In this document: piece by piece, positions 22,198-32,000 of the stretch
Layout: every line of letters begins with the position of its first letter
How positions within the stretch are numbered: the first letter of the stretch is position 1
DNA from: Cupriavidus necator
Lineage (GTDB): Bacteria; Pseudomonadota; Gammaproteobacteria; Burkholderiales; Burkholderiaceae
Direction of reading: 5' to 3'
Assembly (NCBI RefSeq): GCF_016127575.1
Contig: NZ_CP066019.1
Location: forward strand, 300,001 to 332,000
DNA length: 32,000 nucleotides
Notes under the pieces: model-generated
Databases searched by the model: none
Told to the model about the DNA's origin: nothing
Seen by the model: only the letters and a program-made list of their open reading frames with translations
Position numbers and translations under genes: made by a program

Positions 22198-22764
22198 CTA
22201 GACGTCGTCAGCGGGAACCGCATGACCTTGATCCCGCAAGGCCTTCGTCCAGCGCTTAATGCGTGCACGCAGTCGTCCCTGTGCAGCCCTGTCTATCGGC
22301 ATGTCGTCGACGCGGCTGATCGCTGTACGCGGCAAGACATAGCCAAGCTGTATCAGGGCCATACAGAAGACTCGGTCCTTGTCGCGATCCGCTGCCGCCT
22401 TCGCCATAAAGAGGTCAACAAGGTCAAGGCAATAGCCGACCCGCCCATTCGTGCCCACCGTCTGAATGCGCTGCAAGCGGTTTTCCCAGCCGGTCGGAAG
22501 ACATGCTGTCTCTGGCCCGACGCCCTGCGCGTAGTAACCATACGTCTCGTGAAAGCGCGAGCCTTCGCCAATCGCCGCGTCGATCGCATCCGCCTTGTGG
22601 GTAGCATTGAGCGGGTAGATGTCAGCCTCCGCGGACATCGTGAAAACCGCCGGGGGATTAGGGATCGGCCCCAGGATGGATTGGCTGCCAACGACAACGA
22701 ACTCATATTCGTTCGTGATGTCGGCAGCAGCCCGAATGATGTGTTCCAGATCTTCCCGCTTCAT
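22198..22764 (-). CDS. Minimal nucleotidyltransferase-fold protein (Pol-beta/MNT-like), putative toxin/effector
   Basis: The internal ATG 22764 of ORF 22198..22938 gives a 188-aa product starting MKREDLEHIIRAAADITNEYEFVVVGSQSILGPIPNPPAVFTMSAEADIYPL. This shows G26-S27, then 17 residues, then E45-x-D47, the minimal NTase signature. The start overlaps the upstream stop as ATGA. Many A/T-ending codons contrast with neighbouring genes. It resembles a family I recall as DUF6036, which I have not verified. Confidence 0.6.
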   Translation of the reverse strand: MKREDLEHIIRAAADITNEYEFVVVGSQSILGPIPNPPAVFTMSAEADIYPLNATHKADAIDAAIGEGSRFHETYGYYAQGVGPETACLPTGWENRLQRIQTVGTNGRVGYCLDLVDLFMAKAAADRDKDRVFCMALIQLGYVLPRTAISRVDDMPIDRAAQGRLRARIKRWTKALRDQGHAVPADDV

Positions 22765-23426
22765 TCCTGGTCCCCGAGGACAACGCCTTTTTTCAACGCC
22801 TGAACCTGTGCTAGCACTTCCTGCCGAATGGCATCTGGTAAAAGCGTGGGCAGGGGAGACGCTTGGCGCAGCTCTTGAGCACGCCGAGTTCGGCCAAGCG
22901 CTTTGCGCCACGACTGGTTCGCAAGAATCGTTTCCCACTCGGACCAGAGTGAATCAGACCGTGAGTCTCCCTGCGCGCGCCATCGCCTGAGGACTTCTCG
23001 GGCCCGGTCCAGTAGCGCTGGGTTATCCTGAATCAGGCGGATTGCTTCCTTGTGCAGCGCCATGCTCTGCAAGTCCTGAGCCTCATGGCGGCTTGGATCA
23101 GTCCTTACCCGAACCTGAACCTGCGGAATGGCGCGCTTGGATGAGGCGGCCGCAGAGTTCGCCGGCGCCGGTTGAAAAGTATCGCTGACTAACAGGGCAA
23201 GGTCACCGGCAACCCCCAGCACGGACATAACACGCAGATATGTGCCCATGGTTGGCGCGGGGTCGCCTGCCTCAACGGCAGCGAGGGTCGTCCGCGAGAT
23301 GCCGACGCGCTTGGCCATCTCAACCGTGCCAAAGCCCTGAGCCTTCCGCAGGCGTTTGATGCGGTCGCCGAGTTGCAGGAGCAAATGGCGCTCGAGAACC
23401 GAGGTGGTATCGGTAAAGGCTGGCAT
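22761..23426 (-). CDS. XRE/Cro-type HTH regulator with a C-terminal domain of unknown function, putative antitoxin
   Basis: The 221-aa ORF has the HTH LGDRIKRLRKAQGFGTVEMAKRVGISRTTLAAVEAGDPAPTMGTYLRVMSVLGV. A Pro/Ala/Ser linker follows. The helical C-terminal domain reads ...AIRLIQDNPALLDRAREVLRRWRAQGDSRSDSLWSEWETILANQSWRKALGRTRRAQELRQASPL. Confidence 0.75.
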   Translation of the reverse strand: MPAFTDTTSVLERHLLLQLGDRIKRLRKAQGFGTVEMAKRVGISRTTLAAVEAGDPAPTMGTYLRVMSVLGVAGDLALLVSDTFQPAPANSAAASSKRAIPQVQVRVRTDPSRHEAQDLQSMALHKEAIRLIQDNPALLDRAREVLRRWRAQGDSRSDSLWSEWETILANQSWRKALGRTRRAQELRQASPLPTLLPDAIRQEVLAQVQALKKGVVLGDQE

Positions 23427-23435
23427 ATGTCCAGT

Positions 23436-23464
23436 ATTTTAGACAAAATTCACAGGTTTGACTA
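23436..23464 (-). promoter_or_regulatory. Candidate promoter giving a leaderless or near-leaderless HTH mRNA
   Basis: On the minus strand, TAGTCA (23464-23459), a 17-nt spacer, then TAAAAT (23441-23436), with only 9 nt (ACTGGACAT) before the ATG and no Shine-Dalgarno. ATTTT-AGAC-AAAAT arms overlap the -10 element. Confidence 0.3.
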
Positions 23465-24056: not shown

Positions 24057-25052
<996 letters not shown>

Positions 25053-25080
25053 GTGTTGTCTTGATGGAGGGTTGGAGTAT

Positions 25081-26142
25081 TCATCGTTGGGGGATGGCGA
25101 TGGTGTAATCGAGGTCGAGCACCACATTGGACGGGTGCGCGGCCCGCCCTTCGCCCGGCTCAGGAAAGACGATGGACGAGGCGCAGGCGTTCTTCACGCC
25201 GATCATGCGCAGCCGCAGTGCCCCGATGTGCTCGTGACCGAGGTCGATCTTGTCCAGCACCCGGGTGGCGCAGGCGATGGTGTCGCCCGCGTAGGCCGGG
25301 TTCACGTGGCTGCCGGCGTTGATGGCGAGGATGGACAGGCCGTTCTCCAGTCCGTCATAGGCCAGCGCGCGGCATACCGAGATGACGTGGCCGCCATAGA
25401 CCAGCCGCTTCCCGCCACCGGCGGCCATGGCATGGCCATCGAAATGGGCGCGCGCGGTGTTCTGGTACAGGCGCGTGGCGATGCTATGGTCGCTGTCATT
25501 GATGGTCATCGCGCCGGGGTGGTCTATGCGTTCGCCCACGGCGTAGTCCTCCCACAGGTCGTCGATGCAGGTCATGGCGGTGATCTCGCGCACGCGTGCC
25601 GTGTAGCCGCTCCCGCGCAGGTGTTCGACTGTCACCACGGGCTGGGTGGCCGGCACGACCGGCGCGCCGCATGGCGCCTCGGGATCGCGCTTGTGCACCA
25701 TTACCCAGCGCACCCAGCCGAGCACCTCGCGGCCATACTGGTTGCGAGCCGTGGAGCGCACGTAAACCACCCCGCTCCTGCGGTTGGAATTCTCCTTCAG
25801 GCCGATGACCTCCGATTCGACGGAAAGCGTATCCCCTGAATACACGTGCGAAAGGAAGCGTACTTCCGCGTAGCCGAGGTTCGCCACAGCATTGAGCGAG
25901 ATATCCGGCACCGTCTTGCCAAAAGCGGTGTTGAAAGCTAGCAGGTCTTCCAGCGGCTGGCTTTCAAAGCCCAGTTGGTGTGCATTGGTCTGCGCCGTGC
26001 ACAGCGCCGCGCGGCTGCCTGTCAGGCCGATATACAGGCTGCGGTCGCCCTCAGTCAGCGTACGCGGCGTGGCATGACGGATCCGCATCCCTATATGGAA
26101 GTCCTCGAAAAAATTTCCGCGGCGATTTTTATTCATTTCCAT
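25081..26142 (-). CDS. MaoC-like double hot-dog enoyl-CoA hydratase, mesaconyl-CoA hydratase (Mch)-like
   Basis: The 353-aa ORF contains FFEDFHIGMRIRHATPRTLTEGDRSLY, FGKTVPDISLNAVANLGY, VRWVMVHKRDP, RLYQNTARAHF, LVYGGHVIS and VVLDLDYTI. As I recall them, these blocks are characteristic of Mch / beta-methylmalyl-CoA dehydratase. The second ATG at 26136 has better spacing to AAGGA. Confidence 0.7.
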   Translation of the reverse strand: MEMNKNRRGNFFEDFHIGMRIRHATPRTLTEGDRSLYIGLTGSRAALCTAQTNAHQLGFESQPLEDLLAFNTAFGKTVPDISLNAVANLGYAEVRFLSHVYSGDTLSVESEVIGLKENSNRRSGVVYVRSTARNQYGREVLGWVRWVMVHKRDPEAPCGAPVVPATQPVVTVEHLRGSGYTARVREITAMTCIDDLWEDYAVGERIDHPGAMTINDSDHSIATRLYQNTARAHFDGHAMAAGGGKRLVYGGHVISVCRALAYDGLENGLSILAINAGSHVNPAYAGDTIACATRVLDKIDLGHEHIGALRLRMIGVKNACASSIVFPEPGEGRAAHPSNVVLDLDYTIAIPQR

Positions 26143-26198
26143 TCCTTGTGGCTCAGTAGCCTCCAGCTTCGAACGTGCCCTCGCGGAGACGCCAGTGG

Positions 26199-27425
26199 TT
26201 AGCGGATAGCACCGACCGCGCGCAGATCGTCGATGTCGTCGCCGCTGTAGCCGGCGGCGCGCAAGACTTCATCGGTGTGCTCGCCCAGCATCGGGGCACG
26301 GCGCCGGACCGCCCCCGGGGTGTCGCTCAGCTTGATCGGCACGCCGGCGATCTTCACGCGCTGCGCCGAACCGGGCTGCTCGACATCCACCAGCATCTGC
26401 CGCACCGCATAATGCGGATCGGCAAAGATCTCGGCGGACGTGCAGACCGGCCCGAACGGCACCTTGCCGCCCAGGACGGCCGCGATTTGTTCCTTGGTGC
26501 GGCCGGACGTGAAGTCTTCGAGCAAATCGATGACTTGCTGCATGTTGGCGACGCGCGCCGCATTGGTCGAGAAAGCCGGATCGGTGCCCAGTTCCGGATG
26601 GCCGATGGCGGCGGCCAGCTTCTCCCACAGCGGATCGTTGGCGACGGCGATGGACACGTAGCCGTCGCGCGCCCGGAACAGGCCGAACGGGCACAGCAGG
26701 GGATGGCGGTTGCCTTCCGGCCCGGGTACCACGCCGGTGTAGGAGGTCTGGTAGACGATGCGCTCGCACATGGCCAGCACGGCGTCCGTCATCGCCACGT
26801 CCACGAACTGGCCCTTGCCGGTTTCCTTCACCCGGTGTACAGCCGACAGGATGCCGATGCAGAGCATCAGCGCCGGGATGGTGTCGCCTACGCCGGGGCC
26901 AATCTTCATCGGTGTTTGGTGGTCGGGGCCGGTGATGCCCGTCATGCCGCCCATCGCCTGTGCGACTACGTCATAGGCTGGCCAGTCCGCGTAGGGGCTG
27001 GCGCCCGAGCGCGGATCGCCGAAGCCCCGCACGGTGCCATAGACGAGGCGCGGGTTGCGCTCCCGCAGCCTTTCCCAGCCCAGCCCGAGGCGTTCCATCA
27101 CGCCGGCGCGGAAGTTCTCGACCACGATATCGGCGCCGTCGATCAGCTTGCGGGCAAGCGCCAGCCCCTCGACGGTCTTCAGATCGACGGCAATCGACCG
27201 CTTGTTGCGGTTGACGCTTTGGAAATAGCCGCCATACTCGCGGAGCGTGTCGTCCTCGCAGAAGGGGGCGGTCAGGCGCGTGCCGTCGCCCGTCATGGCC
27301 TCGACCTTGATGACGTCGGCACCGTGGTCGGCCAGGATCTGGGTGCAAAACGGGCCGGCCAGCATCTGGGTGAGGTCGATCACACGCAGGCCGGCGAGGG
27401 CGCCGGGGGATGACTGCTGCATCAT
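26199..27425 (-). CDS. Family III (CaiB/BaiF) CoA-transferase
   Basis: Only the C-terminal 408 aa of the 832-aa ORF 26199..28697 look real. The product starts MMQQSSPGALAGLRVIDLTQMLAGPFCTQILADHGADVIKVE. It contains VENFRAGVMERLGLG and YDVVAQAMGG. The ATG at 27425 overlaps the ACAD stop as ATGA. Confidence 0.85.
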   Translation of the reverse strand: MMQQSSPGALAGLRVIDLTQMLAGPFCTQILADHGADVIKVEAMTGDGTRLTAPFCEDDTLREYGGYFQSVNRNKRSIAVDLKTVEGLALARKLIDGADIVVENFRAGVMERLGLGWERLRERNPRLVYGTVRGFGDPRSGASPYADWPAYDVVAQAMGGMTGITGPDHQTPMKIGPGVGDTIPALMLCIGILSAVHRVKETGKGQFVDVAMTDAVLAMCERIVYQTSYTGVVPGPEGNRHPLLCPFGLFRARDGYVSIAVANDPLWEKLAAAIGHPELGTDPAFSTNAARVANMQQVIDLLEDFTSGRTKEQIAAVLGGKVPFGPVCTSAEIFADPHYAVRQMLVDVEQPGSAQRVKIAGVPIKLSDTPGAVRRRAPMLGEHTDEVLRAAGYSGDDIDDLRAVGAIR

Positions 27426-28591
27426 GCCACCACCACCTTGCCCATCAGCGCGTCGGAGATGATGCGCATCTGGATTTCCGAGGTGCCCTCGAAGATCTTC
27501 GTCAGCCGTGCATCGCGCCAGTAGCGCTCGGCGGCGAAATGCGTAGTGTATCCGGCGCCCCCGTGGATCTGCAGGCCTTCGCTGGTAACGCGCTCGCACA
27601 TCTCGCTGGCGAACAGTTTGACCATTGACGCCTCGGTGTCGGCACGGCCTCCATCGTCGATCTTCTCGCACACCGAATAGAGCAGGGCGCGCGCGGCCTC
27701 GATCTGCGTAGCCATGTCGGCGATCTTGAAGCGGATGGCCTGGAAGTTGCCGATTGGCGAACCGAACTGGGCGCGGTCCCTGGCGTACTGGATCGAATCT
27801 TCGAGCGCGCCTTGCGCGAGGCCGATGGAGCGCGCGGCCGTGTGGGCGCGCGCCGCTTCCAGCCCTGCCGTGGCGAGGTAGAACGCCTTGCCTTCGTCGC
27901 CAACCATCTTCGAATGCGGCACGCGGCAGCCGTCGAACGCCAGTTCCCAGGTGGTCCAGCCGTGGTAGCCGATCTTCGGAATCACGCTGCCCTTGACGCC
28001 CTCGGGCAATGCGCCGCGCGGCTTCTCGACCATGAAGGCGGACAAGCCCTTGTGGCGCGCTTTCGGGTCGATCACAGCATCCGTGCGGCAGATCACGAGG
28101 ATGAAGTCCGCCTCGTCGGCGAAGGTGCACCAGTACTTGTTGCCGGTGATGACCCACTCGTCGCCGTTGCGCACGGCGCGGCAGGAGATGTTGGCGACGT
28201 CGGACCCGGCGTTGGGCTCGGACAGCGAAAATGCGCCGAGGAACTGGCCGGCCGCCATGCGCGGCAGGTATTCGGCCTTCTTCTCGGGCGTGAGCGCCTT
28301 GAGCGCGCCGATCAGGCCGTTGCCGCGCGCGATCAGGCTGCCCACGCTCATCCAGCCGCGCGACAGCTGCTCGGCGACGAGGCAGTACTCGTAGGCACCA
28401 AGGCCGAGGCCGCCGTATTCTTCGGGGATCAGGATGCCGAAATAGCCCAGCTCGGCCATCTCGTCGATCAGTTCGCGCGGAATCTGGCCCTTCTCCGGGT
28501 CCAGTTTGTTGGCCAGTGGCAGCACCCGTTCCATCGTGAACTGACGGGCGGCTTCCTGGATCATGCGCCGTTCGGCGGTGAGCTTCTGCAT
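27422..28591 (-). CDS. Acyl-CoA dehydrogenase
   Basis: The 389-aa ORF contains FSLSEPNAGSDVANI, ITGNKYWCT, QFGSPIGNFQAIRFKIADM, IHGGAGYT and the C-terminal catalytic-base context IFEGTSEIQ. Confidence 0.88.
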   Translation of the reverse strand: MQKLTAERRMIQEAARQFTMERVLPLANKLDPEKGQIPRELIDEMAELGYFGILIPEEYGGLGLGAYEYCLVAEQLSRGWMSVGSLIARGNGLIGALKALTPEKKAEYLPRMAAGQFLGAFSLSEPNAGSDVANISCRAVRNGDEWVITGNKYWCTFADEADFILVICRTDAVIDPKARHKGLSAFMVEKPRGALPEGVKGSVIPKIGYHGWTTWELAFDGCRVPHSKMVGDEGKAFYLATAGLEAARAHTAARSIGLAQGALEDSIQYARDRAQFGSPIGNFQAIRFKIADMATQIEAARALLYSVCEKIDDGGRADTEASMVKLFASEMCERVTSEGLQIHGGAGYTTHFAAERYWRDARLTKIFEGTSEIQMRIISDALMGKVVVA

Positions 28592-28619
28592 CGGAATGTC
28601 TCTCAGCGAATTCTTCTCG

Positions 28620-28643
28620 CCGGCCCGGCGGCGGCCGGGCCGG
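28620..28643 (-). promoter_or_regulatory. Perfect 10-bp all-GC hairpin in the only sizeable intercistronic gap of the CoA operon
   Basis: CCGGCCCGGC (28620-28629) pairs with GCCGGGCCGG (28634-28643) around the 4-nt loop GGCG. It lies between the Ccl-like stop (28652) and the ACAD start (28591). No U-tract is present. It may act as an mRNA processing, stability or attenuation element. Confidence 0.35.
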
Positions 28644-28651
28644 TGCCCACG

Positions 28652-29422
28652 TCAGGGCAGGACGTTGCGCGGGTCGGCCTTCAGGACGAGTTCCCACGCC
28701 TCGCGGGCCATCGGCTGGCTCTTCTCTTCCAGCACATGTGCCAGCAGGCCGGCCGAACGGCCCACCAATGCCAGGCCGCGCCCGATCAGCGGGTCCAGTC
28801 CCATCGCGGCGATGATCGCGCCGATGGCGCCGACCACGTTCATCGGCAGCTTGCGGTTGTGCTCGGTCATCAGCACTGCCGAAATGGCTTCCATCAGGCG
28901 CCAGTGCAGGCCGTAGTAACCGTTCTCGCGCGACAGGTCGCGCAGCGCGGGCACACGCGGGTCGCCGTCGACGTGGATGGGGTGGCCCACGCCGAATACT
29001 TGCTGGCGGCGCTCCTTGTGGCGGCGGATCACATCGCGCGCGGCCTGCATGACATCGGCGTCGGTCGCATCGTCGCGCAGCTCTTTCGCGCCTTCGAGCA
29101 GCATCTCGGCCGCGTTCTGCATCGGGCCGAGGAACACGCTGCCCGCGCCAAGCAGGCCGGTCGCCACCGCGCCCTGCAGCGCTTCAGGCGCGCCGATGTA
29201 CGTCAGGCGGGCGGACAGCGAGCTGGGGGTGATGCCATGGTCGGCCGTGGTCACCAGCAGCGCGTTGACCATGACCTTCTCGCGCGGCGTGGGCATGCGC
29301 GAAAGCGTGGTGAAGAAGATCATGTCGACGAAGTCGAACTTGCCGATGATTTCGGTGGACAAATTCTTGCCGCGCACCATGATGGTGTCGGTCGTCGTAT
29401 AGCCGATGTCGGTCTTTACCAT
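28652..29422 (-). CDS. Citrate-synthase-fold protein, citryl-CoA lyase (Ccl)-like
   Basis: Only the last 256 aa of ORF 28652..30595 look real. The product starts MVKTDIGYTTTDTIMVRGKNL. It contains LLVTTADHGITPSSLSAR (cf. ADHE.N.ST) and VFGVGHPIHVDGDPR (cf. GFGHRVY..DPR). The ATG at 29422 overlaps the upstream gene by 7 nt (ATGGTAA). Confidence 0.75.
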   Translation of the reverse strand: MVKTDIGYTTTDTIMVRGKNLSTEIIGKFDFVDMIFFTTLSRMPTPREKVMVNALLVTTADHGITPSSLSARLTYIGAPEALQGAVATGLLGAGSVFLGPMQNAAEMLLEGAKELRDDATDADVMQAARDVIRRHKERRQQVFGVGHPIHVDGDPRVPALRDLSRENGYYGLHWRLMEAISAVLMTEHNRKLPMNVVGAIGAIIAAMGLDPLIGRGLALVGRSAGLLAHVLEEKSQPMAREAWELVLKADPRNVLP

Positions 29423-31581
29423 TGGGAAGGCTCCGTGCCACGGAAGGCGATGACAGCGTCCAGCGCCACCACGCCCTGGCCCTGCGGACGCACCGCGAGG
29501 GGGTTGATTTCGAGTTCGTCGATGCGGTCGGCGTGCCTGGCGACAAAGTCGGACAGCTTCACCAGCGTGTCGGCCAGCGCATCGATGTCGAACGGCGTCT
29601 GGCCGCGGTGGCCCTTGAGCAGTTCGTGGCAGCGCGTCTCGGCGATCATCGCGCGCGCCGATTGCGGCGTGAGCGGCAGCAGTCGCCGGCTGACGTCCTT
29701 GAACAGTTCGATCGCGACACCGCCCAGGCCGAACGTGCAGACATGGCCGAACACCTCGTCGCGGTGGATGCCGACCACGGCTTCCACGAATGGCGACGGC
29801 AGCATCGGCTCGACCAGCACGCCCTCGATACGGTCCGCCGGCGCGGCCTTGCAACCGTTGGCGTAAATTTCCTCGAACGCTGCGCGCGCGGCGTCTTCCG
29901 ACGCGATGCCCAGGCGCACGCCACCGATGTCGGTCTTGTGCGTGATGGCCGCGCTGACGATCTTCATCACCACCTTGCCGGTGCCTTGCGCAGCTGCATT
30001 GCGGAAGGCCTGCGCCGCTTCGTCGGCCGAGGTGGCAACCACGCCGCCCGGTACGGTCACGCCGGCGCTTGCGAGCAGCGCCTTGCCGGCGGCTTCCGAC
30101 AGGGCCGCACAGGCGCCTGCAGCCTTGCGCGGTGCGGTCTCGCCGAGCGCACGCCAGCTGTGGTCGAACTGCGCCTGCCATTTGCCGTACTCGATGAACC
30201 GCTTCACGGCCAGCACCGCGTTGCCGACCGCGCGCATGGGCATCAGGCCGCCCTCGATCATCTTGCGCTGGCCTTCGCCGGTGCGGTCGCTCATCCAGAC
30301 GGGGACGATCGGCGTGGCTTCCTCTGACTGCACGCGCACCATGCTGTCGGCCAGCATGGCGCTGGTCTTGCCGTACTCGACGGGAATCGGGACCAGCACG
30401 AGGTCGGTATTCGGGTCGCCCGCCGTGGCCTTGAGCGCGGCGTAGCCGACCTCGGCATTGACCAGCACCTCGGCGGTCACGTCCACCGGGTTGTCGAACG
30501 CGGCGTAGCCGGGCAGGGCGCGGGCCAGCGCTTCGAGCGTCTGCGGCGCGAACTTCGACAGCGTCAGTCCGGCGATGCCGACCATGTCGGTGCACAGCGC
30601 CGCCGTGCCGCCGGAGAAGCTGTAGACGGCGAGCTGTTCCTTGCCCGTCGGCGTGGCGCGCGACAGCAGCGAGGCCACGTCGATCAGTTCATCGATGTCG
30701 TCCACTTCGATGATGCCGAGCTGGCGGAATACCGCACTGTTGATCTCGGCCACGCCGGCGATGGCGGCGGTGTGCGAGGCGGCGGCCTTGGCGCCGATTT
30801 CCGACTTGCCGACCTTCAGCGCGACGATGGGCTTGCCCCGTCGCGCGGAGTGCAGCGCGGCGGCCATGAAGCGCGGGCCGTTGCGCACGCCTTCCAGCGT
30901 GGTGACGATGACCTTGATGTCGGGCGCATCGGCCATGTAGTGGATGTAGTCGCTGACCTCGAGGTCGGCCTCGTTGCCGCCCGAGCACCACAGGCCGATG
31001 CCGACGCCGCGGTCCATCGACTGGATGAACGAGCGGCCCAGCCCGCCGCCCTGCGTGGCCACGCCGATGGGGCCCGGCCTGGCATTGTCGATGCGCCAGG
31101 CCGGCGAGAACGTCATGCCGAGGCGCGCGTTCATATTGTTCAGGCCGGGGCAGTTCGGGCCATAGATGCGCATGCCGGTCTTCGCGACGATGGCGCGCAT
31201 CTCGGCCTCGGCGGCGCGGCCTTCCTCGCCGGTCTCGCCGAAGCCGGAAGTGAAGACGATGGCGAACTTCACGCCGCACTCGCCGCATTCGCGCAGCGCG
31301 TCGAGCACCATGTCAGCGCGCACGGCCACGATGGCCAGGTCGGGCACGGCGTCAAGGTCGCGCACCGAGGGGTAGCACGGGCGGCCAGAGATTTCCTTGC
31401 GGCCCGGATTGACGAGGTACAGTTCGCCCTGGAATTGCGAGTAGACCGTCAGGTTCTCGAAGGTGCGGGCGCCGATGCTGTCGGGCTTCTCGGAAGCGCC
31501 CACCAGCACGATCGAGCGCGGCTCGACCAGGCGGGTGAGGTCGCTGAACCAGAGGCCGTTGGCTTCCGGTGTTGTCGTCAT
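29416..31581 (-). CDS. ADP-forming (NDP-forming) acyl-CoA synthetase, fused alpha/beta domains (acetate--CoA ligase family)
   Basis: The 721-aa ORF has the CoA-binding N-terminus PRSIVLVGASEKPDSIGAR. It contains GPNCPGL and the phosphohistidine loop AASHTAAIAG. The C-terminal ATP-grasp region contains VVMKIVS..ITHKTDIGGV. The ATG overlaps the upstream MaoC stop as ATGA. Confidence 0.85.
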   Translation of the reverse strand: MTTTPEANGLWFSDLTRLVEPRSIVLVGASEKPDSIGARTFENLTVYSQFQGELYLVNPGRKEISGRPCYPSVRDLDAVPDLAIVAVRADMVLDALRECGECGVKFAIVFTSGFGETGEEGRAAEAEMRAIVAKTGMRIYGPNCPGLNNMNARLGMTFSPAWRIDNARPGPIGVATQGGGLGRSFIQSMDRGVGIGLWCSGGNEADLEVSDYIHYMADAPDIKVIVTTLEGVRNGPRFMAAALHSARRGKPIVALKVGKSEIGAKAAASHTAAIAGVAEINSAVFRQLGIIEVDDIDELIDVASLLSRATPTGKEQLAVYSFSGGTAALCTDMVGIAGLTLSKFAPQTLEALARALPGYAAFDNPVDVTAEVLVNAEVGYAALKATAGDPNTDLVLVPIPVEYGKTSAMLADSMVRVQSEEATPIVPVWMSDRTGEGQRKMIEGGLMPMRAVGNAVLAVKRFIEYGKWQAQFDHSWRALGETAPRKAAGACAALSEAAGKALLASAGVTVPGGVVATSADEAAQAFRNAAAQGTGKVVMKIVSAAITHKTDIGGVRLGIASEDAARAAFEEIYANGCKAAPADRIEGVLVEPMLPSPFVEAVVGIHRDEVFGHVCTFGLGGVAIELFKDVSRRLLPLTPQSARAMIAETRCHELLKGHRGQTPFDIDALADTLVKLSDFVARHADRIDELEINPLAVRPQGQGVVALDAVIAFRGTEPSQW

Positions 31582-32000
31582 TGCGCTTCTCCGGGCGTGC
31601 GGCGCTTGAACAGGCAGGTGGCGGCCATCTCGGCCACGACTTCGCCGCGCTGGTTCACGGCCTTGCGCAGGAAACTGATGACACCGCGCTCCGGACGGCT
31701 GGTCGGCTTCTGTTCGGTGACTTCGATGTCCACGCGGATGGTGTCGCCGATGAAGGTCGGCTTGGGGAACTTCAGGCGGTTTTCCAGCACGCTGAACAGC
31801 GAGCCCTCGAAGAACTGGTTCGGGATCGAGCGCGAGGTCAGGCCGGCCATGAACGCGGCGACCAGCATGCCGTGGGCGATGCGCTGGCCGAAGATGGTGC
31901 CCTTGGCGTACTCGGCATCGACGTGGACTTTGTTGAAGTCGCCGGTCAGGGCGGCGAAGGCTGCCACGTCGGCCTCGGTGATGGTACGCGACGAGGTGCT
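31578..32000 (-). CDS. MaoC-family single hot-dog (R)-specific enoyl-CoA hydratase/dehydratase; N-terminus beyond the window
   Basis: The frame is open from 32000 down to the stop at 31578. It reads ...STSSRTITEADVAAFAALTGDFNKVHVDAEYAKGTIFGQRIAHGMLVAAF, the MaoC signature. The track lists only the internal Met form, 31578..31967. Confidence 0.8.
   Translation of the reverse strand, partial: STSSRTITEADVAAFAALTGDFNKVHVDAEYAKGTIFGQRIAHGMLVAAFMAGLTSRSIPNQFFEGSLFSVLENRLKFPKPTFIGDTIRVDIEVTEQKPTSRPERGVISFLRKAVNQRGEVVAEMAATCLFKRRTPGEAQ

Follow-up and report, generated by a model that had tools for sequence, protein, structure and literature searches.

We analysed a 32,000-nucleotide window of Cupriavidus necator DNA (contig NZ_CP066019.1, positions 300,001 to 332,000, or G000:C2:300001-332000, in a source genome of 7.4 Mb and three replicons), in which the gene for an ADP/NDP-forming acyl-CoA ligase overlaps the gene for a short protein with the citrate-synthase (CS) fold. 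An earlier note on this DNA had seen in the pair a possible split ATP-citrate lyase (ACLY). We find that the two genes are part of a five-gene conserved catabolic module, comprising a short-chain dehydrogenase/reductase (SDR), an acyl-CoA dehydrogenase (ACAD), a MaoC-type hydratase, the ADP-forming ligase and the CS-fold protein, under an IclR repressor, and that the CS-fold protein lacks the catalytic Asp of its characterised relatives. Because SDR, ACAD and MaoC are more constant partners of the CS-fold gene than the ligase, we read the unit as a beta-oxidation-like module, not as a two-enzyme citrate cleavage system. Our favoured reading, which we hold tentatively, is that the module acts on the CoA ester of an imported acid and that the CS-fold protein carries out the terminal C-C cleavage, releasing acetyl-CoA.

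The pair itself is as the earlier note had described it. The ligase (P0001) is encoded on the minus strand by a stop-free open reading frame (ORF) of 721 amino acids at 29416-31581, with the phosphohistidine loop AASHTAAIAG in its translation and an ATP-grasp domain, and the CS-fold protein (P0002) by an ORF of 256 amino acids at 28652-29422 on the same strand, which carries ADHG and GVGHPIHVDGDPR blocks. The junction between them reads ...CCCAATGGTAAAGACC and contains a 7-nt overlap, ATGGTAA, such that the ligase stop codon TAA (29416-29418) falls within the first three codons of the CS-fold gene. A MaoC ORF ending at 31578 precedes the ligase with an ATGA overlap, the ligase ATG lying at 31579-31581; the MaoC gene is truncated by the window edge and, in DNA fetched beyond the window, extends to window-equivalent 32078. 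An overlap of 7 nt is ordinary for operons, and it is the conservation of the coupling that goes beyond chance. For comparison we scanned a species-representative genome collection and took the best 80 of 271 confirmed matches with 8-kb flanks, a sample that over-represents Burkholderiales and Rhodobacterales; operon proteins were mapped to these loci by tblastn, and the 75 loci with at least 3 kb of upstream sequence were used for neighbour counts. An orthologous ACD-type ligase lies directly upstream of the CS-fold gene in 38 of the 75, with junction gaps that are all 41 nt or less (distances taken from tblastn ends and hence approximate). The co-occurrence check proposed in the earlier note returned a real, recurrent and tightly coupled pair.

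The same comparison did not bear out the idea of a self-contained two-enzyme module. The gene directly upstream of the CS-fold gene is MaoC in 23 loci, SDR in eight, an AMP-forming ligase in three and TctC in one, with none in two, and the ACD ligase is missing within 8 kb in 32 of the 75 loci, so that it is no obligate partner. On the CS-fold tree, ligase adjacency has switched at least 11 times, at least seven of these changes being forced by well-supported branches. The steadier partners are SDR, MaoC and ACAD, found in the same-strand chain of 64, 58 and 54 loci, respectively, compared with 40 for the ACD ligase, 31 for an AMP-forming ligase and 24 for a CaiB-type transferase. Of the 80 loci, 70 have one or more CoA-activating genes. 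Several layouts recur: SDR-ACAD-AMP ligase-MaoC-ACD-CS-fold-CaiB-ACAD in Rhodobacterales, with TRAP transporters; SDR-MaoC-ACD-CS-fold-ACAD in Bordetella, Achromobacter and Comamonadaceae; SDR-ACAD-MaoC-CS-fold with the ACD gene divergent, downstream or absent; a minimal TctC-AMP ligase-SDR-CS-fold variant with neither ACAD nor MaoC; and ACD-CS-fold alone in Arthrobacter, Microbispora and Steroidobacteraceae. An unbiased clustering of neighbouring ORFs added IclR (23 loci), crotonase (17), TRAP DctM (13) and DctP (7), an ABC ATPase (12) and aldehyde dehydrogenase (7), and TctC components also recur. We considered thiolase as a hidden core member and rejected it, as a thiolase-like gene occurs in only 10 of the 80 loci, often on the opposite strand.

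P0002 has the short form of the citrate-synthase fold, a large-domain core of about 260 amino acids, that is typical of citryl-CoA lyase. Pfam Citrate_synt matches it at 77 bits, through the C-terminal half of the model alone; its closest solved relative is the citryl-CoA lyase (Ccl) of Hydrogenobacter thermophilus (6hxp; phmmer E 1.6e-33), and its AlphaFold2 (AF2) model (pLDDT 78) gives 6hxp as the top Foldseek match (E 2.4e-10), followed by the CCL modules of ACLY. P0002 keeps His62, His147, Arg156 and Arg222, which correspond to H274, H320, R329 and R401 of citrate synthase and are invariant in all 81 orthologues (81/81) from the 80 loci, which come from other species. The catalytic Asp (CS D375, human ACLY D1026, M. 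concilii ACL D541; motif N-V-D-G) is missing: in an ungapped, well-conserved stretch P0002 reads MNVVGAIGAI where Ccl 6hxp has LNVDGAIAAI, with Val197 at the position in question. The orthologues carry Ala in 52 cases, Val in 28 and Gly in one, and never Asp or Glu, and 14 family members of 36-87% identity have V, A or S. The same column reads NVDFY and NLDWF in the source genome's own citrate synthases. The earlier note had named the absence of the catalytic His or Asp as evidence against its proposal; both His residues turned out to be present, and the Asp to be absent here and in all 81 orthologues.

In human ACLY, D1026 is essential, and the D1026A mutant is inactive and traps (3S)-citryl-CoA (PMC10115795); likewise, the PDB titles of 6znw (D541A) and 7rig (D1026A) describe ACL D-to-A mutants solved with (3S)-citryl-CoA bound. 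As the canonical general base/acid is absent, textbook citryl-CoA retro-Claisen chemistry is excluded for P0002. At the same time, the invariance of the two His and two Arg residues in 81/81 orthologues argues for a working active site that would bind a carboxylated CoA ester. The strict conservation of what remains of the active site speaks against a decaying gene, and we read P0002 as a putative neofunctionalised enzyme or ligand-binding module.

These observations bear directly on the annotation. P0002 scores 366 bits on the NCBIfam model NF004868, 'citryl-CoA lyase', whose cut-off is 193, and remains below the equivalog models NF004867 (181 bits vs 409) and NF004864 (114 vs 261). Since NF004868 also takes in Asp-containing and fused proteins, a match to it does not define function. 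With the catalytic Asp missing, the label 'citryl-CoA lyase' is probably wrong for P0002. That the annotation is right, and that P0002 is a bona fide citryl-CoA lyase of the reductive tricarboxylic acid (TCA) cycle or of citrate fermentation, we regard as very improbable: the NF004868 score and the kinship to H. thermophilus Ccl speak for it, but the Asp is missing, the NF004867 score is less than half of its cut-off, there is no CcsAB partner, and the gene lies among catabolic CoA-ester genes of an aerobic heterotroph. The same genome also has a separate short CS-fold gene that keeps the Asp (NIDG; G000:C2:2436069-2436758, locus L004), within a 432-aa open frame; if the source genome has any true citryl-CoA-lyase-type enzyme, it would be this one. 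Reductive TCA or citrate cleavage was rejected as the role of the unit on the same grounds of missing Asp, missing CcsAB and catabolic context.

The ligase looks competent and belongs to the ACD superfamily in its fused alpha-beta form. Its Pfam domains are CoA_binding_2 (residues 22-149), Succ_CoA_lig (169-306) and ATP-grasp_5 (493-711), and the five-subdomain ACD architecture, with CoA-binding, flavodoxin-like ligase and ATP-grasp domains, is borne out by alignment to 8wzu and 7cm9 over the full length. The translation shows AASHTAAIAG in the alpha part and THKTDIGGV in the ATP-grasp part, which we take to be the canonical ACD phosphohistidine loop and second His motif. Among solved structures it comes closest to the ADP-forming 3-hydroxypropionate- and 4-hydroxybutyrate-CoA ligases 9y43 and 8wzu, the alignment to 8wzu spanning residues 18-711. 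P0001 stays under every NCBIfam equivalog cut-off, including those for acetate-CoA ligase (ADP-forming) (NF045494, 389 bits vs 1200; TIGR02717, 343 vs 567), and succinate-CoA ligase models give it merely 29-34 bits. Compared with the ADP-forming synthetases for non-acetate acids (8wzu, 9y43 and DddX, 7cm9), it shares the fused alpha-beta domain order and retains the phosphohistidine loop SHTAA and the HKTDxGGV motif, but it differs in falling below all equivalog cut-offs and in belonging to a separate orthologous group that goes along with the CS-fold gene. Indeed, ligases adjacent to CS-fold genes are 45-94% identical to P0001, whereas six other ACD paralogues in the same genome are only 30-37% identical, and the ligases beside CS-fold genes therefore represent one orthologous lineage.

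How far does this support a split pair analogous to ACLY, in which the ACD ligase would activate a citrate-like hydroxy- or unsaturated di- or tricarboxylate and the CS-fold protein would cleave the ester by retro-Claisen or retro-aldol chemistry, with ACAD, MaoC and SDR serving side branches or products? The ligase directly upstream in 38 of 75 loci with frames overlapping or nearly abutting, the loci of Arthrobacter, Microbispora and Steroidobacteraceae that hold only ACD and CS-fold genes, the retention of the carboxylate-binding arginines and the existence of ligase/CS-fold fusion proteins with an ACLY-like domain order all favour it. Against it stand the absence of the catalytic Asp from every orthologue, when human ACLY with the corresponding D1026A change is inactive (PMC10115795) and D-to-A ACL mutants were solved with (3S)-citryl-CoA bound (titles of 6znw and 7rig), as well as the 32 of 75 loci that have no such ligase within 8 kb and the at least 11 gains or losses of adjacency. 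The known systems differ in other respects too. P0002 resembles H. thermophilus Ccl and the CCL-CSH module of ACLY (CSH, citrate-synthase homology) in its short fold, in the motifs DHG, GxGH...DPR and GR...AH..EE, and in having as its genetic partner a CoA ligase from the succinyl-CoA-synthetase/ACD superfamily. Unlike them, it has NVVG where Ccl has NVDG and adjoins an ACD-type ligase, not one of CcsAB or ACLY-beta type, and unlike Ccl its gene sits among ACAD, MaoC and SDR genes in the catabolic operon of a heterotroph, outside the reductive TCA cycle. Nor does the unit qualify as ATP-citrate lyase, as the ligase comes from the ACD branch, there are two separate genes and the Asp is missing. 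We therefore consider a split ACLY-like pair unlikely: the pairing and the domain order of the fusions stand, and the Asp, the obligate partnership and the citrate-type system do not.

The fusions come from a search among longer proteins, which gave at least 28 clusters of proteins of 725-912 aa with an AMP-forming acyl-CoA ligase in front and, behind it, a CS-fold domain that lacks the Asp, in all cases with NGAGA. They share the domain order of ATP-citrate lyase, with a ligase from a different superfamily, and are Rosetta-stone evidence for a predicted module of ligase and CS-fold protein acting on the same CoA ester. The ligase part of these fusions (P0274-P0301, from metagenomes and Acidimicrobiales) is CaiC-like. 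Fusions of an ACD ligase to the CS-fold were sought among proteins of 449-2000 aa and none was found, a blank that is weak evidence against a split pair.

A physical tie to ligases would also suit a CS-fold protein that cleaves nothing and serves ligases and hydratases as an accessory, loading and unloading CoA or acyl-CoA or mediating oligomerisation. The catalytic Asp is gone across a large and old clade, P0002 is translationally coupled to a ligase and its relatives are fused to one, and according to one school the CSH module of ACLY handles CoA in an allosteric role (PMC10115795). We nevertheless find this rather improbable, given that a mere scaffold would have no need of the two catalytic His residues and the substrate Arg, all of them under strict conservation, that in 23 of 75 loci the gene comes directly after MaoC and has no ligase next to it, and that stand-alone copies are fused to dienelactone hydrolase or LigB.

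A further alternative is that P0002 is a thioester hydrolase that keeps just the second half-reaction of citrate synthase, of the citryl-CoA hydrolysis type, and closes the module by freeing acid and CoA. Thioester hydrolysis is native to the citrate-synthase fold, and loss of the enolising base would be expected to remove the C-C chemistry first. The Asp of citrate synthase also takes part in hydrolysis, which speaks against this alternative, and a hydrolase fused to a CoA ligase would run a futile cycle; we hold it to be improbable, slightly more so than an accessory role.

For the favoured beta-oxidation-like module, we infer the following order of steps. An imported organic acid, probably a di- or tricarboxylate, would be converted to its CoA thioester, a step that would fall to the ACD ligase in this operon and to an AMP-forming ligase or a CoA-transferase in others. 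A beta-hydroxy group would then be put in by ACAD and MaoC, and the SDR would probably oxidise it to the beta-oxo level. The CS-fold protein would then stand in the place of thiolase and split the C2-C3 bond, giving acetyl-CoA and a carbonyl compound or a free acid; a free acid would be re-activated by a ligase or a transferase. Judged from the sequence, the chemistry is most likely non-canonical at this CS-fold step. Two variants can be distinguished. In one, the beta-oxoacyl-CoA produced by the SDR would be cleaved hydrolytically via its hydrate, and the nascent carboxyl might, speculatively, supply the proton that the Asp gives in Ccl. In the other, the beta-hydroxyacyl-CoA produced by MaoC would undergo retro-aldol cleavage. 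We mildly prefer the first, because the link to SDR is near-universal, minimal operons of ligase, SDR and CS-fold gene exist, and the abundant CoA-activating enzymes could re-activate the acid. The minimal TctC-AMP ligase-SDR-CS-fold variants indeed tie the SDR to the CS-fold protein.

Several observations weigh against the favoured reading. In place of the Asp with which citrate synthase, Ccl and ACLY protonate or deprotonate C2, P0002 has Val, and none of the 81 orthologues has Asp or Glu there. A compensating acid/base residue was sought column by column in 58 Asp-less and 16 Asp-containing representatives and none was specifically conserved; only T65, S67 and L90 differ between the two sets, and none of these is a plausible base. 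The SDRs of the minimal variants are just 29-39% identical to the operon SDR, so that the SDR link may not reflect one conserved function. The aldehyde dehydrogenase that lies near the loci with only ACD and CS-fold genes would fit an aldehyde product and thus favours the retro-aldol variant. Finally, a housekeeping thiolase elsewhere in the genome could finish the pathway.

Hydrolytic cleavage of a beta-ketoacyl-CoA to acid and acetyl-CoA has precedents in other folds, namely CouO (PMC4737184) and Atu1421 of Agrobacterium fabrum (PMC7797058; bioRxiv 10.1101/160747). The hydroxycinnamate routes of Rhodococcus jostii RHA1 (CouL/CouO) and A. fabrum (Atu1415-1417/Atu1421) share the logic of a ligase, a hydratase, an SDR and a splitting enzyme that is not a thiolase (PMC4737184, PMC7797058), the CouO/Atu1421 step converting a beta-ketoacyl-CoA to acetyl-CoA and the free acid. 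Some loci with ACD and CS-fold genes are part of aromatic-acid operons that also encode a Rieske oxygenase, LigB and an aldehyde dehydrogenase. The differences are that CouO belongs to the amidohydrolase superfamily and P0002 to the citrate-synthase fold, so that any resemblance would be functional only, that the hydroxycinnamate substrates are aromatic, and that an ACAD is present in the Cupriavidus operon. The CoA-dependent dicarboxylate pathways for benzylsuccinate (Bbs) and itaconate/methylsuccinate (Ict-Ich-Ccl, Mcd-Mch-Mcl) are alike in combining a CaiB-type transferase, an ACAD, a hydratase, an SDR and a C-C cleaving enzyme, and unlike in that cleavage is performed there by a thiolase (BbsAB) or a lyase of the CitE/HpcH fold. 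To our knowledge, none of the Bbs and itaconate/methylsuccinate pathways uses a citrate-synthase-fold protein or an ACD ligase. It is possible, if doubtful, that the Asp-less short CS-fold proteins, at present all labelled 'citryl-CoA lyase', form an unrecognised class that would end thiolase-free, beta-oxidation-like pathways by splitting a beta-oxo- or beta-hydroxyacyl-CoA, without the Asp, into acetyl-CoA and an acid or carbonyl product, and that would be physically partnered by a CoA ligase; the partner, ACD-type here and AMP-forming or even fused elsewhere, would make the substrate or re-activate the released acid.

Other members of the family point to aromatic compounds. P0189 is a dienelactone hydrolase fused to an Asp-less CS-fold domain (NAAGA), and in P0270 a LigB-like part comes after a CS-fold domain. 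Along with the dioxygenase next to a third paralogue of the source genome, these proteins link the fold to the ends of aromatic ring cleavage, e.g. intermediates of the 3-oxoadipate type. The loci with only ACD and CS-fold genes at L061:4832-13396 (Arthrobacter hankyongi) and L068:1704-11344 (Peristeroidobacter soli) continue with a Rieske (LigXa-like) oxygenase, a GFO/IDH/MocA dehydrogenase, a ferredoxin reductase and LigB, and have an aldehyde dehydrogenase, a zinc alcohol dehydrogenase (Zn-ADH), a P450 and an SDR upstream. By gene content, the two are a putative uncharacterised aromatic-acid operon common to Actinobacteria and Steroidobacteraceae. Asp-less CS-fold proteins thus recur near aromatic ring-cleavage routes as well as in the SDR/ACAD/MaoC module.

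A search of 1.84 billion representative proteins returned 2,428 matches at E <= 1e-3 and 120 at E <= 1e-30. We built a tree of 71 full-length representatives and the paralogues of the source genome, for which the citrate synthases of that genome served as the outgroup. At its base lies a grade of the Asp-containing proteins, among them P0240 (452 bits on NF004869) and the fourth paralogue with NIDG. P0002 lies within a large derived group (64 rows, SH-aLRT 93) in which the position is mostly Thr/Ser or Ala/Val/Gly, and its own clade of 15 rows (support 96) is of the Ala/Val/Gly type. The distribution is patchy, with the family above cut-off in 14 of 201 genomes sampled across the order, a tally that includes one unpublished genome (G026) with citrate-synthase-level matches only, on which none of our claims depends. 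The source genome itself has two further Asp-less CS-fold paralogues above the NF004868 cut-off. The first (G000:C2:399892-400665; L009 7889-8665) is 67% identical, has NAVG and sits behind a MaoC gene, under an IclR of its own and without a ligase. The second (G000:C1:181981-182673; L010 7912-8700) is 36-40% identical, has NVSG, shares a 4-nt overlap with an AMP-forming ligase and is adjoined by an intradiol dioxygenase and a TetR gene.

In the source genome, the minus-strand unit reads, from 5' to 3', IclR, SDR (of the FabG/acetoacetyl-CoA-reductase type), ACAD1, MaoC, ACD ligase, CS-fold gene, a 60-nt spacer, ACAD2, CoA-transferase, hydratase and lyase, and a gene for a Bug/TctC carboxylate receptor (G000:C2:335001-336116) is divergent from IclR. 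The closest relatives of the proteins encoded here belong to Cupriavidus. The MaoC-type (R)-specific enoyl-CoA hydratase, whose 3' part occupies 31578-32000 (minus strand; Pfam MaoC_dehydratas, 90.6 bits), keeps the catalytic Asp and His in its GDFNKVH motif, the complete ORF being at L008:578-1078. The spacer (28592-28651, minus strand) is the sole real intergenic gap in the operon; it can form a hairpin of 10 bp, all of them GC, which has a tetraloop but lacks a U-tract (predicted RNA fold -37.4 kcal/mol, z = -2.9). It sits at the seam between the front and back modules, and in most other genomes the conserved module stops at the CS-fold gene; the spacer may mark where two formerly separate operons were joined, or may act in the processing or stability of the mRNA.

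The back half of the operon (24057-28591) resembles a mesaconate/methylsuccinate set. All its genes are on the minus strand: ACAD2 at 27422-28591 (Pfam Acyl-CoA_dh N, M and C; no NCBIfam equivalog); a family III, CaiB-type CoA-transferase at 26199-27425 (Pfam CoA_transf_3, 442 bits), whose nearest NCBIfam model is succinyl-CoA:mesaconate CoA-transferase at 452 bits vs a cut-off of 700; a double hot-dog, mesaconyl-CoA-hydratase-like (Mch-like) hydratase at 25081-26142 (Pfam MC_hydratase, 66 bits, and MaoC); and an HpcH/CitE-like acyl-CoA lyase at 24057-25127 (Pfam HpcH_HpaI, 37 bits; weak match to RipC/Ccl). The longest CitE-like ORF overlaps the hydratase gene by 47 nt and has a low-complexity beginning; because of this overlap, its true start is probably downstream of 25127, at an internal Met near 'MITPT'. 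NCBIfam equivalogs that could name the substrate were sought for the SDR, both ACADs, MaoC, CaiB, the Mch-like and the CitE-like protein, and none reaches its cut-off. In the source genome, the five-gene module is joined to a second one (ACAD, CaiB, Mch-like and CitE-like genes) of mesaconate/methylsuccinate type. Orthologues of ACAD2 and CaiB, and often of the Mch-like and CitE-like genes, remain within 8 kb despite rearrangements in Cupriavidus, Paraburkholderia and Variovorax, which suggests that the product of the five-gene module feeds a mesaconate/methylsuccinate-type branch.

The replicon region around the window is dense in Bug-linked acyl-CoA operons. Just beyond the window, at L008:7113-13775 (G000:C2:338113-344775), lies another CoA-ester gene set with a nitroreductase, a second CaiB transferase, two TctC genes and a second ACD-type ligase of 718 aa that is 36-47% identical to P0001. 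Within the window, an XRE-HTH gene and a DUF6036 nucleotidyltransferase gene (22198-23464) sit as a pair in a lower-GC islet between the two catabolic operons.

The family and its annotation were already known. As far as our searches tell, the systematic absence of the Asp, the SDR/ACAD/MaoC module, the interchangeable activating enzymes and the ligase fusions are new, being undescribed in the full-text literature searched. In that literature, we found no paper on the function of the CS-fold family or of the gene set, and none that places ligase, CS-fold protein and MaoC in a pathway, in agreement with the view of the earlier note that the combination of ligase and CS-fold protein has no assigned substrate. 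This matters because genome pipelines name thousands of family proteins 'citryl-CoA lyase', and the name has been taken as reductive-TCA potential in reconstructions of Thermobifida (PMC9198275) and Delftia (PMC3318190). The label is unsafe, since a large and old clade lacks the Asp and travels with SDR, ACAD, MaoC and interchangeable activating enzymes.

An orphan pathway is thereby defined, with occurrences in Burkholderiales, Rhodobacterales, Steroidobacteraceae and Actinobacteria. Should the CS-fold protein prove to be a new kind of C-C cleaving enzyme, the citrate-synthase fold would gain a chemistry, and beta-oxidation-type routes for dicarboxylic or aromatic acids would gain a new last step. 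Should it prove non-catalytic, it would give a natural counterpart to the allosteric role that has been proposed for the ACLY CSH module. If the Asp-less proteins truly are a class of such enzymes, ligase-coupled modules that naturally lack the Asp would also inform the dispute over what the CSH module does.

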